Source: Prochlorococcus marinus subsp. pastoris str. CCMP1986 (lineage in GTDB: Bacteria > Cyanobacteriota > Cyanobacteriia > PCC-6307 > Cyanobiaceae). From it: a DNA stretch of 32,000 bases. The notes under the pieces are model-generated. The model was not told where the DNA came from and ran no database searches. It was given only the letters and a program-made list of their open reading frames with translations. Position numbers and translations under genes: made by a program. Shown in pieces: positions 15,390 to 30,017 of this stretch. Within the stretch, counting starts at the first letter, position 1; each line of letters begins with the position of its first letter. The stretch is from the NCBI RefSeq assembly GCF_000011465.1, contig NC_005072.1:330001-362000 (forward strand), given 5' to 3'.

Positions 15390-15821
15390 TTGAATAATAT
15401 ATATAGGTATGAAAAAGATATGACCCAAGCAAAATTGGAGGGTTTATTAAAAATAGATAACGAATCATATAACCTTTTACGAGTCCTCACAATGTTCATG
15501 AAGTTAGATAATTCTCAGGACGTTCCTCTTCAGGCAATGGCAGTATTTTGGTACGTAGCAACCTATCAAAATTGTACTAAGAAGGATATTGAAAAATACT
15601 TCGATATGAGTAAAGCTAGTGCTTCAAGGATGACGGACTATATAAGTCGATATCATAGGCTAGGTAAGGCAGGCTTAGGTCTAGTTTCTAAAGAACAAGA
15701 TCCAAAAGATAAAAGAAGAACACTTTTGAAACTTACAAGGAAAGGTAAAGATCTAATTGAAAAGTCTTTTAATACTCTCTATGAGGATATGAAAAGTTTT
15801 GAAGCTGAATTTGAAGAATAA
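15390..15821 (+). CDS. MarR-like winged-helix transcriptional regulator
   Basis: KKDIEKYFDMSKASASRMTDYI (HTH) followed by DPKDKRRTLLKLTRKGKDLIE (the DPxDxR...LTxxG wing) matches MarR architecture. TTG start; alternative ATG at 15420. Confidence 0.6.
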   Translation: MNNIYRYEKDMTQAKLEGLLKIDNESYNLLRVLTMFMKLDNSQDVPLQAMAVFWYVATYQNCTKKDIEKYFDMSKASASRMTDYISRYHRLGKAGLGLVSKEQDPKDKRRTLLKLTRKGKDLIEKSFNTLYEDMKSFEAEFEE

Positions 15822-17624: not shown

Positions 17625-17640
17625 ATTGACAGTCGATCTA
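17625..17640 (+). repeat. 16-nt element ATTGACAGTCGATCTA, copy A
   Basis: Exact match to the reverse complement of four copies at 28196, 28575, 29640 and 30002. Starts 8 nt after the stop codon of the DUF3303-like gene. Confidence 0.9.
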
Positions 17641-17644
17641 TATT

Positions 17645-17669
17645 AGAGGGTTATAACCCTCTTTTTTTT
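17645..17669 (+). terminator. Rho-independent terminator
   Basis: AGAGGGTTATAACCCTCT palindrome followed by T8, directly after repeat copy A. Confidence 0.65.
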
Positions 17670-18045: not shown

Positions 18046-18222
18046 TTAAATCTCCCTAGAATTCAGTTATTTAATCTTAAAAAATTCTATCTTTATTAGC
18101 TGCATTTTTTATGAAACCCTTACCACTGGCAAAGCTAATTATTAGTAATTGAGATTCAATCTGAATTGAAGGGCAATTAGCTTCTTTTTTTCTTAATATT
18201 GAATTAAAAAGTATTCAAATTT

Positions 18223-20425: not shown

Positions 20426-20524
20426 TGATGCAGCTCCTGAACTTGCTCAAGTCCCCGTCCTTTGGCTTGAGTCGTACTGCGGTCTATCTAGTGGTAGATC
20501 GGACGATTTGGTAGCTGTAGCTAC
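20426..20524. other. G/C-rich structured island (three consecutive hairpins). Candidate ncRNA or foreign DNA remnant
   Basis: Hairpins CTCAAG/CTTGAG (20446-20471), GGTCTATCTA-GTGG-TAGATcGGAC (20481-20504) and GTAGCT/AGCTAC (20511-20524). The only ORF (29 aa) uses G/C-rich codons atypical of this window. Confidence 0.3.
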
Positions 20525-27534: not shown

Positions 27535-27903
27535 TTAAAATTTAAGTTTTGTTTTTACTCTATTTTTATTTTCAGAATTAAATTTAAAAAGTCCCGAATC
27601 AGTAAATATAGTCAATTCATCGCCATATGATTTCTGGATAGATAAACCTTCAGATTCTAAATTTTTAACAAATACATTTCCAACTAGTTTTAAAGTTTTC
27701 GCATCTTTGTCGTAAGTAAGCTTATTTGAGGAGGCTTCAAAATTATTGTTAGTACTTTTGATAATTACATTTCCAATAGCTTCAAAATTGCCTTTAATAC
27801 TTTGTATTTGAGAATCAGATGTAACCGTGTAATTCAGTTTCTCTTGTGCAAATGAAATTTCAGTGAAAAGAAATAGCACTGCTGAAAGTAGTGAGAGTTT
27901 CAT
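27535..27903 (-). CDS. secreted OstA/LptA-like beta-jellyroll protein
   Basis: Signal peptide MKLSLLSAVLFLFTEISFA. Repeated ...GNVIIKSTNNNFEASSNKLTYDKDAKTLKLVGNVFVKN resembles the OstA_N pattern. Confidence 0.5.
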   Translation of the reverse strand: MKLSLLSAVLFLFTEISFAQEKLNYTVTSDSQIQSIKGNFEAIGNVIIKSTNNNFEASSNKLTYDKDAKTLKLVGNVFVKNLESEGLSIQKSYGDELTIFTDSGLFKFNSENKNRVKTKLKF

Positions 27904-28167
27904 TCACTCAATAAGTTCAAGATTATAAACAGTATCAACACAGTTGTTATCAATATCCCATTGTTTTAATTCTGGTTGTTCAAGCATGGAACCAAACTTT
28001 TCCAAATCAGAACAGCTCATAAGAATCATTGCTTTATGTTCATTAACTTTGATTATCTCCAGCTCAGAACAAAAAACGTATCCTTGTTCTTTATCTACTT
28101 TTTTAACCATTGCTTCAAATTCAGAGAAAGGGCAACCAAATGTCGAGACAACTAAAGTATTAGGCAT
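27904..28167 (-). CDS. hypothetical protein (87 aa)
   Basis: Its stop abuts the next gene's start (27903/27904). The ATG lies 28 nt downstream of repeat copy B. Confidence 0.5.
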   Translation of the reverse strand: MPNTLVVSTFGCPFSEFEAMVKKVDKEQGYVFCSELEIIKVNEHKAMILMSCSDLEKFGSMLEQPELKQWDIDNNCVDTVYNLELIE

Positions 28168-28195
28168 AGAAAAAGGAGCTAGTTGCTCCTTATTT

Positions 28196-28211
28196 TAGAT
28201 CGACTGTCAAT
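28196..28211 (-). repeat. 16-nt element ATTGACAGTCGATCTA, copy B
   Basis: Exact copy, 6 nt after the stop of 28218..28490. Followed on the minus strand by hairpin AAGGAGC/GCTCCTT, TTTCT, then the ATG at 28167. Confidence 0.9.
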
Positions 28212-28217
28212 CACTTT

Positions 28218-28490
28218 CTATGAGTAGACTTTGGCAACTAATGGACCAGCTTCCTCATCAGTAAATACAGGTGTGGTTTCCCAATTTAGAAATTCACCCC
28301 ATTCAGCGGCATGTTGATATATTGCTTTTGGATCATCAGTCTTTAAAACTATCCAACCCTCTAAAGAACCAGGTGCGTGATATCTTCCAATCATCTCAAC
28401 TCCAGGATAATCTCCCCCACCACCAAGAAATTTTTCTGCACCTTTTTGATGATATCCGGCCTTAAATGACCAATGCTGAACATAAAGCAT
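28218..28490 (-). CDS. DUF3303 family protein (paralog 3 of 4; best match to the family pattern)
   Basis: MLYVQHWSFKAGYHQKGAEKFLGGGGDYPGVEMIGRYHAPGSLEGWIVLKTDDPKAIYQHAAEWGEFLNWETTPVFTDEEAG closely follows the remembered DUF3303 consensus. Confidence 0.75.
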   Translation of the reverse strand: MLYVQHWSFKAGYHQKGAEKFLGGGGDYPGVEMIGRYHAPGSLEGWIVLKTDDPKAIYQHAAEWGEFLNWETTPVFTDEEAGPLVAKVYS

Positions 28491-28574
28491 TTTATTTTTT
28501 AATTTTTATTGGCTTTCTATTACTAGCAAAATAAATAATTCCTGAAAATAAATATTACTAATTGCCCATTTTTT

Positions 28575-28590
28575 TAGATCGACTGTCAAT
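28575..28590 (-). repeat. 16-nt element ATTGACAGTCGATCTA, copy C
   Basis: Exact copy located between the minus-strand terminator (28605-28649) and the DUF3303 gene start (28490). Confidence 0.9.
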
Positions 28591-28604
28591 GATAAAAGTT
28601 TGTA

Positions 28605-28649
28605 TCAAAAAAGAGGTTGAACTCAGCCTTTAAATGAAAACAACCTCTT
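28605..28649 (-). terminator. Rho-independent terminator of the mini-ORF operon
   Basis: AAGAGGTTG (28611-28619) pairs with CAACCTCTT (28641-28649). On the minus strand it is followed by a U6-type run. Confidence 0.6.
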
Positions 28650-28691
28650 TAGGAATACTTAGCTTATTTTTATTTAATAGGATTTGGCTGT

Positions 28692-28806
28692 TTAAACCAA
28701 TCTCATTAAATTCTCTGGTGGACTATCAATCATTTCTGATCCCTCCATTTGATTAACTAGAAATTACTATGGATAATATTTTCTGTATATCGGTATTAAT
28801 GCCGAT
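28692..28806 (-). repeat. repeat unit copy 2: ATCGG/CCGAT hairpin, spacer, GGAGGG, mini-ORF MIDSPPENLMRLV
   Basis: Hairpin 28789-28806, GGAGGG (reverse complement of 28741-28746), mini-ORF 28692..28733 containing ATTGATAGTC. Homologous to 9900-10000. Confidence 0.5.
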
Positions 28807-28942
28807 TTTTAATATAGAAAGCCAATACTAATAAAACTACAGTAAAACTTAAAACAATAATCCCAATGTCTGGTTGCTTTGCATTTGTGAAATAAGTAGG
28901 ATTTTCTACTGGAATTTCAATTATTTCTCCTTCTTCAATCAT
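28796..28942 (-). CDS. mini-ORF f (48 aa, C-terminal TM)
   Basis: Hand translation: MIEEGEIIEIPVENPTYFTNAKQPDIGIIVLSFTVVLLVLAFYIKNRH. Its ATG overlaps the stop of ORF e (TAATG). Confidence 0.5.
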   Translation of the reverse strand: MIEEGEIIEIPVENPTYFTNAKQPDIGIIVLSFTVVLLVLAFYIKNRH

Positions 28943-29055
28943 TACTTATATGTATTGAGTAAAAATATATAAAATCCCAACAATACTAATGTTGCTGTAC
29001 CTACACCAATAACTGTAGCTGGTTGATTATTCCAAAGTTGATTAAAAAATTCCAT
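28942..29055 (-). CDS. mini-ORF e (37 aa, TM)
   Basis: Hand translation: MEFFNQLWNNQPATVIGVGTATLVLLGFYIFLLNTYK. Its start abuts the stop of ORF d with a 0-nt gap. Confidence 0.5.
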   Translation of the reverse strand: MEFFNQLWNNQPATVIGVGTATLVLLGFYIFLLNTYK

Positions 29056-29211
29056 TTATTTTAATTTTCTTGTTCCACCATAAGAATATTGGCTTTCTTT
29101 TGAAACAATATGCCAACACTTTTTACAGCAAAAAATCCACCTTTTATAATTTATAGATTTTACTCTGTAATGGATCACATCTTCCTTATTGCATAAATCA
29201 CACTTTTTCAT
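29056..29211 (-). CDS. mini-ORF d (51 aa, 4-5 Cys zinc-ribbon-like)
   Basis: Hand translation: MKKCDLCNKEDVIHYRVKSINYKRWIFCCKKCWHIVSKESQYSYGGTRKLK (CxxC...CCxxC). ATGA overlap with ORF c. Confidence 0.5.
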   Translation of the reverse strand: MKKCDLCNKEDVIHYRVKSINYKRWIFCCKKCWHIVSKESQYSYGGTRKLK

Positions 29212-29297
29212 TTTTTTATCATTTTAAAAGTTAAATACGCAAAGCCACCAAGTAATAACAGACTAATAACTCCATAAGTAATTGCTATTCCATACAT
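29208..29297 (-). CDS. mini-ORF c (29 aa, TM)
   Basis: Hand translation: MYGIAITYGVISLLLLGGFAYLTFKMIKK. It starts 2 nt after the stop of 29300..29485. Confidence 0.45.
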   Translation of the reverse strand: MYGIAITYGVISLLLLGGFAYLTFKMIKK

Positions 29298-29299
29298 AA

Positions 29300-29485
29300 T
29301 TATTCTTCCGAGTTATATCTCAAAATAGTTGCAATTGAACTCTTGTCACTTGAGGTAAGTTCTCTATCTTGATATTTCCATTCAAACCATGTAATACATT
29401 CATTTAACTTTGGATTTTCCTTATAAGTTTTTTTCCAGTTTTGTATCCAATTGGCTAATGCACTTGCTTCATCTGTATTTAACAT
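29300..29485 (-). CDS. small conserved protein b (61 aa), paralog of 9593..9781
   Basis: Track ORF. Full-length similarity to the 62-aa protein at 9593..9781. Confidence 0.6.
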   Translation of the reverse strand: MLNTDEASALANWIQNWKKTYKENPKLNECITWFEWKYQDRELTSSDKSSIATILRYNSEE

Positions 29486-29610
29486 TATCCATCTAACCTA
29501 TCTGCGTAATCTCTTAAAACTTCAGCCATCTTTTGGGGTGGAATTTCTTCTTGATATTCTCTACATAAATCAAAAAATTTATCTAAGAAATCTTTCATTG
29601 AAGAGGACAT
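29485..29610 (-). CDS. mini-ORF a (41 aa), first gene of the operon
   Basis: Hand translation: MSSSMKDFLDKFFDLCREYQEEIPPQKMAEVLRDYADRLDG. Its stop overlaps the ATG of ORF b (TAATG). Its ATG lies 29 nt downstream of repeat copy D. Confidence 0.45.
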   Translation of the reverse strand: MSSSMKDFLDKFFDLCREYQEEIPPQKMAEVLRDYADRLDG

Positions 29611-29639
29611 GAAAAAAGGGGCTTCTGTACCTTCTACTT

Positions 29640-29655
29640 TAGATCGACTGTCAAT
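29640..29655 (-). repeat. 16-nt element ATTGACAGTCGATCTA, copy D
   Basis: Exact copy, 34 nt after the stop of 29690..29971. Followed by GAAGG...CCTTT plus a T-run, then the ATG at 29610. Confidence 0.9.
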
Positions 29656-29689
29656 AAGTAACTTAATGGTTCAAGTAGTTAGTGTTTCA

Positions 29690-29971
29690 TTAACGATATA
29701 GAGCTACTGTTTCATCTAAATCTGCGCAAGGTTCAATAGTAATCTCCATTAATTCTCTCCAAGGTCGCCATTGACGCCAAATAGTTTCTAGAGAATCCGT
29801 ATTTACCACAGAGTAACCGTTTCCATGTTGAGGTAAGAAAATCCAAGATTTAACGTTATATCCCTCTGGTCTATTTTGTGGACCTCCTTTGTCGTACCAT
29901 TCAGTTAGCATTTTCGCCCCTTTCTCTTGGGCGTTTGCGTCAGAAAATTTATAAGAAATTAGAAAAAGCAT
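29690..29971 (-). CDS. DUF3303-like protein (paralog 4 of 4)
   Basis: MLFLISYKFSDANAQEKGAKMLTEWYDKGGPQNRPEGYNVKSWIFLPQHGNGYSVVNTDSLETIWRQWRPW aligns with the other three paralogs. Confidence 0.6.
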   Translation of the reverse strand: MLFLISYKFSDANAQEKGAKMLTEWYDKGGPQNRPEGYNVKSWIFLPQHGNGYSVVNTDSLETIWRQWRPWRELMEITIEPCADLDETVALYR

Positions 29972-30001
29972 TAATGAAAATGAGCTAATTTGCCCTTATT
30001 T

Positions 30002-30017
30002 TAGATCGACTGTCAAT
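30002..30017 (-). repeat. 16-nt element ATTGACAGTCGATCTA, copy E
   Basis: Exact copy, 1 nt after the stop of 30019..30486 and 30 nt before the ATG at 29971. Confidence 0.9.

Follow-up and report, generated by a model that had tools for sequence, protein, structure and literature searches.

A repeated 16-mer in genomic island 1 and beyond

We analyzed positions 330001-362000 of the Prochlorococcus MED4 genome, a stretch of 32,000 nucleotides (nt) in genomic island 1 that we call the window, in which the 16-mer ATTGACAGTCGATCTA is present in five exact copies. The five-copy observation is real and well above chance: an exact scan returned all of the coordinates and strands given in an initial annotation of this DNA, relaxing the search to up to three mismatches added zero matches in the window (0.24 expected from shuffles), and 0 of 100 shuffles reached five matches at that threshold. 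In Prochlorococcus island arrays, a dispersed module of roughly 45 nt has this 16-mer as its invariant 5' part, and the module probably joins transcription units, combining a promoter, a terminator and a recombination substrate. The copies and the features around them are listed along the window, where "driven by" denotes an assignment that we hold to be highly probable.

17625-17640, plus strand: copy A, exact match, with TATATT as -10 hexamer
18148-18163, plus strand: sixth, decayed copy (F), ATTGAGATTCAATCTG, 4 mismatches, -10 lost
27535-27903, minus strand: PMM0376, LptC-like, next after PMM0377
27904-28167, minus strand: PMM0377, 87 amino acids (aa), no Pfam family, driven by copy B
28173-28191, minus strand: inverted repeat of copy B, AAGGAGC-AACTA-GCTCCTT, then TTTCT, then ATG
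28196-28211, minus strand: copy B, exact match, its final TA opening the -10 hexamer TAAAAT (28197-28192)
28575-28590, minus strand: copy C, 16-mer intact in a decayed module, with TAAAAA as -10 and without a hairpin
28606-28754, minus strand: Yfr11 small RNA (sRNA; Rfam RF02363, 151 bits), between the mini-ORF operon and copy C
28796-29610, minus strand: operon of six mini open reading frames (mini-ORFs; 41, 61, about 29, 51, about 27 and 48 aa), driven by copy D
29640-29655, minus strand: copy D, exact match, with TAAAGT as -10
29690-29971, minus strand: PMM0379, DUF3303-like, 93 aa, driven by copy E
30002-30017, minus strand: copy E, exact match, with TAAAAT as -10

The spacings reported earlier were all correct on remeasurement. 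The 16-mer starts 8 nt (A), 6 nt (B, past the PMM0378 stop codon), 1 nt (E, past the DUF1348 stop codon) and 34 nt (D) after a stop codon, ends 28 nt (B), 29 nt (D) and 30 nt (E) before the next ATG, and holds TTGACA at a gap of 7 nt from TAAAAT. Family assignment likewise bore out the gene labels DUF1348, DUF3303 (three genes) and LptC/OstA-like. The initial annotation took five copies as the full count and thereby missed the decayed sixth, whose module (18148-18191, plus strand) still has the hairpin GAAGGGCAATTAGCTTC and a T-run. PMM0366, the gene for a plastocyanin-like protein behind it, has its start at 18206, downstream of the old module, from a promoter that carries TAATAT and is newer than the decayed module.

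Outside the window, we scanned a 596-Gb collection, taking one genome per species, and found at least 120 exact matches to the 16-mer. Among the matches listed, 114 were from Prochlorococcus single-cell or isolate genomes (including MIT 9322, MIT 9201 and MIT 9107), while six others, from unrelated phyla, look like chance hits by our own estimate for a collection of this size. The 883 kb around the listed matches, loci that were selected for containing an exact copy, held 155 exact copies, 44 copies with one mismatch and 44 with two. The 16-mer thus recurs hundreds of times in high-light (low-GC) Prochlorococcus genomes. In a motif-blind test, 80 metagenomic loci were gathered through the DUF3764 protein family alone; 44 of the 68 low-GC loci carried the motif at up to three mismatches 24-33 nt 5' of the ATG, and it was present in 0 of the 7 loci with a GC fraction of 0.36 or more. 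Random AT-rich sequence gave a match at up to four mismatches in 1 of 5000 trials. These results indicate that the element is a selected feature of low-GC (high-light-type) Prochlorococcus and not a relic of local duplication. The neutral relic of recent tandem duplication that had been offered as an alternative is contradicted by the recurrence of the 16-mer at a fixed distance in other genomes and metagenome loci.

We compared distinct variants of the element across these loci, for which L numbers are our labels. TTGACA (positions 2-7), AT (12-13) and TA (15-16) were near-invariant and the central GTCG varied. In a divergent lineage, represented by metagenome loci L166, L169-L172 and L186 and by L031 and L049, the element has the form GTTGACAG[C/A]TGATCTA, in which TTGACA and ATCTA are kept and a near-palindrome is broken. 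A second variant lacks the -10 and consists of ATTGACAGTCGATCGC followed by TAGGGGCTTTTAGCCCCC and a T-run (L023, reverse-strand offset 2881, and L104, L085, L003, L029, L098 and L109); it follows a conserved gene ending in ...EAISGF*, and the same context in L163 and L145 is followed by the full 16-mer and a DUF3764 cassette. Within this variant the 14-mer shows 3 changes in 112 nt, versus about 10 in 70 nt of flanks.

These patterns bear on the idea that the module is a selfish or neutral dispersed repeat, uniform through recent spread and gene conversion, of which only the -10 matters for expression. Such a repeat would agree with variation that is concentrated at G/C positions, as AT-biased mutation predicts, with the existence of decayed copies (C and the sixth copy) and with two near-identical module flavors that stand before unrelated genes and are occasionally swapped between families. 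We consider it improbable, however, since TTGACA and AT.TA are kept in lineages whose flanks and central element bases have diverged, two thirds of the low-GC loci in the motif-blind test retained the motif at a fixed distance, and the 14-mer is more conserved than neighboring intergenic bases.

Transcription starts and the overlapping hairpin

Modules run from the 16-mer, whose last TA opens a -10 of the form TAnnnT, through a G+C-rich inverted repeat and a T-run to a start codon. The -10 forms after the 16-mer were TAAAAT, TAACAT, TACAAT and TAAACT, followed by one or two bases, and the inverted repeat is made up of a G-rich arm, an A/T-rich loop and a C/T-rich arm. The start codon lies 25-32 nt past the 16-mer in 129 of 158 sites (mode 28), and the module contains no Shine-Dalgarno sequence. 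With sites aligned on the 16-mer, information content was about zero up to -3, rose at -2 (T) and -1 (G) and was near maximal over the 16-mer. TAnnnT was used as a filter for the sites behind the counts of start-codon distances, cargo families, information content, upstream genes and stems, so its invariance there is imposed, but it was not required in the gene-anchored DUF3764 set, where 27 of 29 distinct variants keep it.

Transcription start sites (TSSs) were taken from Tables S8-S11 of Read et al. 2017, which were obtained with TSSAR on differential RNA sequencing of MED4 from four libraries enriched for primary transcripts. These tables place a start at three of the five copies, each in four of four libraries: at 358183 (minus strand; 28183 in the window), 13 nt past the 16-mer of copy B and 16 nt 5' of the PMM0377 ATG; at 359627 (minus strand; 29627), an orphan TSS 13 nt past copy D, before the unannotated mini-ORF operon and 17 nt 5' of its ATG at 29610; and at 359991 (minus strand; 29991), 11 nt past copy E and 20 nt 5' of the PMM0379 ATG. 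The resulting leaders of 16-20 nt are U-rich and unstructured and run straight into the ATG. Given roughly 2,000 TSSs in the genome table, we estimate the chance of starts in a 3-nt window at three of five copies at about 1e-7. TAAAAT, TAAAGT and TAAAAT end 8, 8 and 6 nt before the TSSs 358183, 359627 and 359991, respectively, which identifies TAnnnT as the -10.

The module resembles a sigma-70-type promoter in having TAnnnT 6-9 nt 5' of a primary 5' end and departs from one in lacking a -35 hexamer at 16-18 bp, where no hexamer is conserved and positions carry about 0.1 bit. TTGACA within the element sits 7 bp from the -10, the spacing on which the earlier statement that the two cannot form a normal -35/-10 pair was based. 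We rejected TTGACA as the -35 of a second -10 located 17 bp downstream in the loop, as no TAnnnT is conserved there and the mapped starts do not fit. Elsewhere in the window, the Glutamine-II riboswitch transcript (20446-20523, minus strand) begins at the orphan TSS 350523, whose 63,541 reads are the highest in the listed part of the table, and its promoter is a textbook TTGACA-N17-TATAAA, showing that the organism does use -35 hexamers at normal spacing. Overall, we consider it very likely that the module acts as a promoter. The published primary 5' ends 11-13 nt past copies B, D and E agree with the first of three readings in the initial annotation, namely a shared element plus -10 that gives short leaders.

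Where a hairpin is predicted, the mapped starts fall in its predicted loop, which spans nt 11/12 to 16/17 past the 16-mer across all modules. TSS 28183 is the second nucleotide of the copy B loop, and a read-through RNA that covers 16-mer to ATG has a folding energy of -10 kcal/mol there, compared with 0 kcal/mol for the RNA from the mapped start; RNAs from the other mapped starts also fold at 0 kcal/mol. With the start inside the loop, the mRNA of the module itself carries only the 3' arm and lacks the 5' arm. An incoming co-directional transcript would instead hold the whole hairpin and U-run and terminate there, and the module's own transcript would escape termination because its 5' arm is missing, such that one 45-nt unit would end one transcription unit and begin the next.

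Two hairpin flavors, GAGGGATAAAACCCTC and AAGGGGCAATTAGCTCC, dominate among 70 distinct stems, for which the mean folding energy was -5.7 kcal/mol versus -1.5 kcal/mol for shuffles. More than half of the distinct regions (138/233) fold at -3 kcal/mol or better, and in 101 of these 138 the next 7 nt contain 5 U or more; these share with intrinsic terminators a G+C-rich stem-loop directly followed by a T/U run. When 91 modules were aligned with MAFFT, RNAalifold yielded no consensus structure because hairpin flavors differ in register; hairpins were assessed by per-sequence folding. Within the window, hairpins had been described at copies A, B and D and weakly at E. Those at A and B are indeed strong (-10 kcal/mol), and D (-3.1 kcal/mol) belongs with E (-4.6 kcal/mol) among the weak ones; none is predicted at copy C.

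The setting of the modules is consistent with termination of upstream transcription, which we regard as fairly likely. At 156 of 206 sites (76%) the gene upstream runs in the same direction, and its stop codon lies -5 to +10 nt from the 16-mer in about 68 of these 156. Some of the stop codons are the element's own TGA, as tGA|TT(GAC) or ATTGAc (window 28183-28168 and many loci), meaning that the upstream coding sequence overlaps the promoter of the next gene, and genes that abut the 16-mer have no room for a terminator of their own. An operon prediction joins PMM0376-0378 and is uninformative here, since incoming and outgoing transcripts would overlap. The inverted repeat of copy B was called terminator-like on both strands, as the -10 reads ATTTTA on the opposite strand. 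This bidirectional character may account for the survival of modules between convergent genes, an example being copy A, where a strong hairpin (17645-17662) is followed by a T8 run and, with no same-strand gene downstream, faces the 3' end of the convergent PMM0365, an arrangement that is kept in at least six other genomes.

The same setting could be taken to mean that the 16-mer acts in RNA, as a 3' untranslated region element of the upstream mRNA (a protein or sRNA site, or one for stability or processing). That most sites follow a co-directional gene, often a few nt past its stop codon, points this way, as does the retention of the 16-mer or 14-mer beside a strong terminator without a detectable promoter at copy A and in the -10-less variant. 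The mapped 5' ends, however, come from libraries enriched for primary transcripts, and 35 of the 206 sites (17%) have a divergent upstream gene, with 15 more having none within 400 nt, which is also at odds with the RNA processing site proposed as the third reading in the initial annotation. Moreover, outside the 16-mer the module mostly goes with the downstream gene, no complementary 8-mer was present elsewhere in the window (including Yfr8, Yfr10, Yfr11 and Yfr2), and the 16-mer lies outside the minimum free energy fold of the four hairpin-keeping copies, with weak 2-3-bp pairing in centroid structures. Rfam 15 covariance models matched Yfr8, Yfr10, Cyano-1 (Yfr2), the Glutamine-II riboswitch and Yfr11, and across the whole window none of the matches at gathering score fell on a module or its element. 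Yfr11 (MED4 coordinates 358606-358754; Steglich et al. 2008) has its own start at 28753 (TSS 358753) and its own terminator; its published coordinates fix the offset between window and genome, by which MED4 transcript maps were projected onto the window. We consider an RNA-level role very unlikely.

Upstream of the -10, the element covers 14 nt at about -13 to -28, a position at which a standard -35 contact is impossible. A dedicated, putative DNA-binding factor, or a non-standard contact by the polymerase, could read the TTGACA and AT.TA blocks and would then give all module genes common control; for a dedicated factor, we judge the case to be evenly balanced. The element had been described as not palindromic. 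With its preferred preceding G it reads GATTGAC-A-GTCGATC, centered near -20 to -22, with arms that match at 6 of 7 positions, and the commonest variant (G11 to A) turns the palindrome perfect (ATTGAC-A-GTCAAT); the description does apply to the divergent lineage, from which the symmetry is gone. A symmetric dimer is no more likely than a bipartite contact or a non-standard contact by the polymerase.

The 16-mer matches none of the known cyanobacterial sites compared, in line with the earlier statement: the sites for NtcA (GTA-N8-TAC), LexA and HLR1/RpaB are not known to have a consensus that fits ATTGACAGTCGATCTA. CGRE1, the site of PMM1637, was rejected from its published description as a different motif at a different promoter position (PMC6191309). 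The MarR-like protein of the island (PMM0363, 15390-15821, plus strand; own TSS at 15398), a MarR family member 42% identical to the regulator pMarR of phage P-SSP7 (PMC9692554), had been suggested as a binder and is not favored: tblastn found a homologue in the window but in none of about 118 other motif loci, where it is thus not linked to the motif. The 61-aa mini-ORF protein of the copy D operon (29300-29485, minus strand) was considered as a candidate DNA-binding autoregulator. Its AlphaFold model is a confident three-helix bundle (mean predicted local distance difference test score, pLDDT, 93.5) for which no significant match was found among solved folds. It has a weak Pfam match below the cut-off and forms 115 clusters at 90% identity in marine metagenomes.

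Cargo and cassette junctions

Genes behind the module belong to at least 48 protein families (median length 89 aa), among them DUF3764, DUF3804, DUF3303 and DUF1330 proteins, operons of tiny hydrophobic peptides and some nuclease- or defense-like proteins (Mrr_cat, T5orf172 and NOV_C); no transcription factor was recognized among the cargo families. The PMM0377 family has 14 occurrences behind the module in other genomes. Overlapping mini-ORF operons encoding hydrophobic peptides of 19-48 aa often stand behind a module (for example L110 6691-7125, minus strand, and window 28796-29610, minus strand), and the peptide MTYIYGIAITYGVVSLLLLGGFAYFTFKM is common to two otherwise different operons of this kind.

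Neither flavor of the module matched cyanophages of the GenBank phage set. A phage origin, or a promoter for a phage polymerase, was rejected because of this lack of cyanophage matches and because the starts are used in uninfected cultures. Three Prochlorococcus-like matches in IMG/VR look like host island DNA. Two related IMG/VR viral contigs with 54-56% GC (L123 89-104 and L127 2826-2841) have the exact 16-mer in the same context (gtgATTGACAGTCGATCTAac...), with an ATG about 55 nt downstream; these high-GC occurrences are probably due to chance.

Cargo genes recur behind different neighbors. Twelve DUF3764 members were found behind 11 upstream families and eight members of the 41-aa (copy D) operon behind eight, and the mini-ORF operon of copy D moves as one cassette. 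In an all-against-all comparison of loci, the 5' ends of 209 homology blocks fell on the first base of the 16-mer (base 0) and those of 101 one base before it (-1), where the background is roughly 0.5 per nt; a second peak lay at +38 to +45, while 3' ends peaked at +15 to +25 and at +41 to +48. Judging by these peaks, the module behaves as a separate unit of 45 nt, with breaks at its two edges and also past the 16-mer. In L100, which comes from a genome sharing 96% identity with MED4 across 5 kb, the mini-ORF cassette has moved and lies in the opposite orientation, and homology begins exactly at 29655, the first base of copy D. Hairpin flavor mostly follows the downstream gene and is sometimes swapped. 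Two complete modules of different flavor converge and abut at TTTTTTTATGAAAAAA in L098 (118-215) with no gene between them, as would result if each had lost its cargo in a deletion ending exactly at the module edge.

Because the same sequence is present at every junction, it could serve as a recombination substrate by which cassettes are shuffled, inserted and deleted, and we hold this role to be more probable than not, at a level similar to that of termination. The second reading in the initial annotation, a travelling boundary and terminator, is upheld insofar as homology breaks exactly at the element and the same gene occurs behind many neighbors. It fails in that the module travels mostly as the 5' end of the downstream gene instead of as a 3' boundary, and in the lack of an integrase or attC.

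The breakpoints could also be read as those of a site-specific recombination site resembling attI/attC, at which a dedicated recombinase cuts within the 14-16-mer and the promoter is secondary. In favor of this are the exact breaks of homology blocks at base 0 and at +15 to +25, the occurrence of the same upstream gene before either the full 16-mer with a DUF3764 cassette (L163 and L145) or the -10-less 14-mer (L023, L104 and L085), the retention of the 14-mer in copies that lack a -10, and the adjoining modules of L098. We nevertheless consider it unlikely. No integrase or recombinase ORF was seen in the 32-kb window (where most ORFs were read by eye only), the core is without two arms around a 6-8-bp spacer, fixed distances to the -10, TSS and ATG are promoter geometry, the cassettes have promoters of their own, unlike those of integrons, and homologous recombination equally predicts breakpoints at the only shared sequence.

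Several observations weigh against a module that unites promoter, terminator and recombination substrate. The tables of Read et al. 2017 contain no start for copies A and C, two of the five; for copy C, no TSS is listed at 35855x-35857x and PMM0378 starts at 28512 (358512), 63 nt downstream. In the same study, nitrogen deprivation left the TSS read counts at B, D and E almost unchanged. Within the window, strong hairpins are confined to A and B, and the folding of D and E does not exceed that of shuffles, so that termination cannot hold for all copies. The near-palindrome is lost in the divergent lineage (GTTGACAG[C/A]TGATCTA), and this lost symmetry, together with the variable GTCG, leaves a symmetric dimer not well supported. 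The element fills nearly all of the intergenic space, such that breakpoints would map to it anyway. Finally, the 14-mer kept in the -10-less variant is unexplained by a pure promoter role, which means that it may also act in recombination or in protein binding independent of initiation. Weighing these points, we still hold the composite module to be the probable explanation.

Prochlorococcus islands hold genes that separate coexisting subpopulations, and how these genes are expressed, co-regulated and exchanged is poorly understood. One module before more than 45 unrelated families defines a candidate island-wide regulon and provides a concrete bait with which to seek its regulator, in an organism whose transcription factors are very few. 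Cassette shuffling, in a genome with almost no insertion sequences or integrons to our knowledge, also gains a mechanism that can be tested. A start placed inside the loop of the preceding gene's terminator would be an unusually economical way to insulate neighbors in a streamlined genome, and the module supplies a small native promoter/terminator part for work in a species that remains difficult to engineer.

Comparison with known systems

We found no paper describing the motif in full-text searches for the 16-mer and its sub-strings on both strands and in keyword searches, although an earlier description may exist; the supplementary tables of one study of expression during phage infection exclude hypothetical proteins (PMC5082946). 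Integrons share with these loci the same-strand arrays of small, mostly uncharacterized genes, a recurring element holding an imperfect inverted repeat, and a content that differs between strains. They differ in that the window has no integrase-like ORF that we could see and no attC structure, and in that the conserved part of the module is a linear 16-mer as opposed to structured attC core sites. The module also stands 5' of each gene with a promoter, and the cassettes of copies B, D and E have their own mapped start, whereas integron cassettes are promoterless.

REP/BIME (repetitive extragenic palindromic and bacterial interspersed mosaic elements) and Correia elements are tens of nt long and occur in many copies between genes, often just past stop codons. 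Their hairpins may terminate or stabilize transcripts, and some carry promoters. The module resembles them as a small, multi-copy intergenic hairpin unit. In those elements it is the palindrome that is conserved, whereas the 70 stems of the module vary and the flanking linear 16-mer is conserved, in fixed register to the -10, the TSS and the start codon.

CGRE1, recognized by the GntR regulator PMM1637 and located 5' of yfr2, is likewise a highly conserved Prochlorococcus promoter motif that emerged from the same kind of TSS maps, and its binding protein was later identified by DNA pull-down (PMC6191309). CGRE1 is a 22-nt palindrome flanked by GTTA and starting at -55 to -57 before one sRNA family. 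The motif of the module has another sequence, at -13 to -28; it comes with a terminator hairpin and is found ahead of dozens of flexible genes.

The known system most similar to the module is the promoter-early stem-loop (PeSL), a motif of T4-like phages that combines promoter and terminator (Arbiol et al. 2010, PMC2839356; Comeau et al. 2014, PMC4122927); the module works like a PeSL and is not a member of that family. PeSLs belong to phage genomes and the module is cellular, absent from the cyanophage records searched. The PeSL stem-loop lies 5' of a -35/N17/-10 promoter that is followed by a Shine-Dalgarno sequence, whereas the stem-loop of the module lies 3' of the -10, with the start in the loop, TTGACA 7 bp from the -10 and no Shine-Dalgarno sequence. 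Excision of mini-circles was shown for PeSLs. Both are short, conserved intergenic units of a promoter and a stem-loop, both repeat between small ORFs of unknown function in hypervariable (hyperplastic) regions, and both are found at the breakpoints of insertions, deletions and replacements, for which PeSLs have been proposed as substrates of modular shuffling. More tentatively, and with doubt outweighing confidence, the module could be the cellular counterpart of phage PeSLs and of integrons: a hyper-conserved, pre-wired expression slot under one regulator, insulated by a start-overlapping terminator and itself the actual recombination substrate (possibly protein-assisted) at which genes are plugged in, swapped or deleted, with the -10-less 14-mer copies as empty landing sites.

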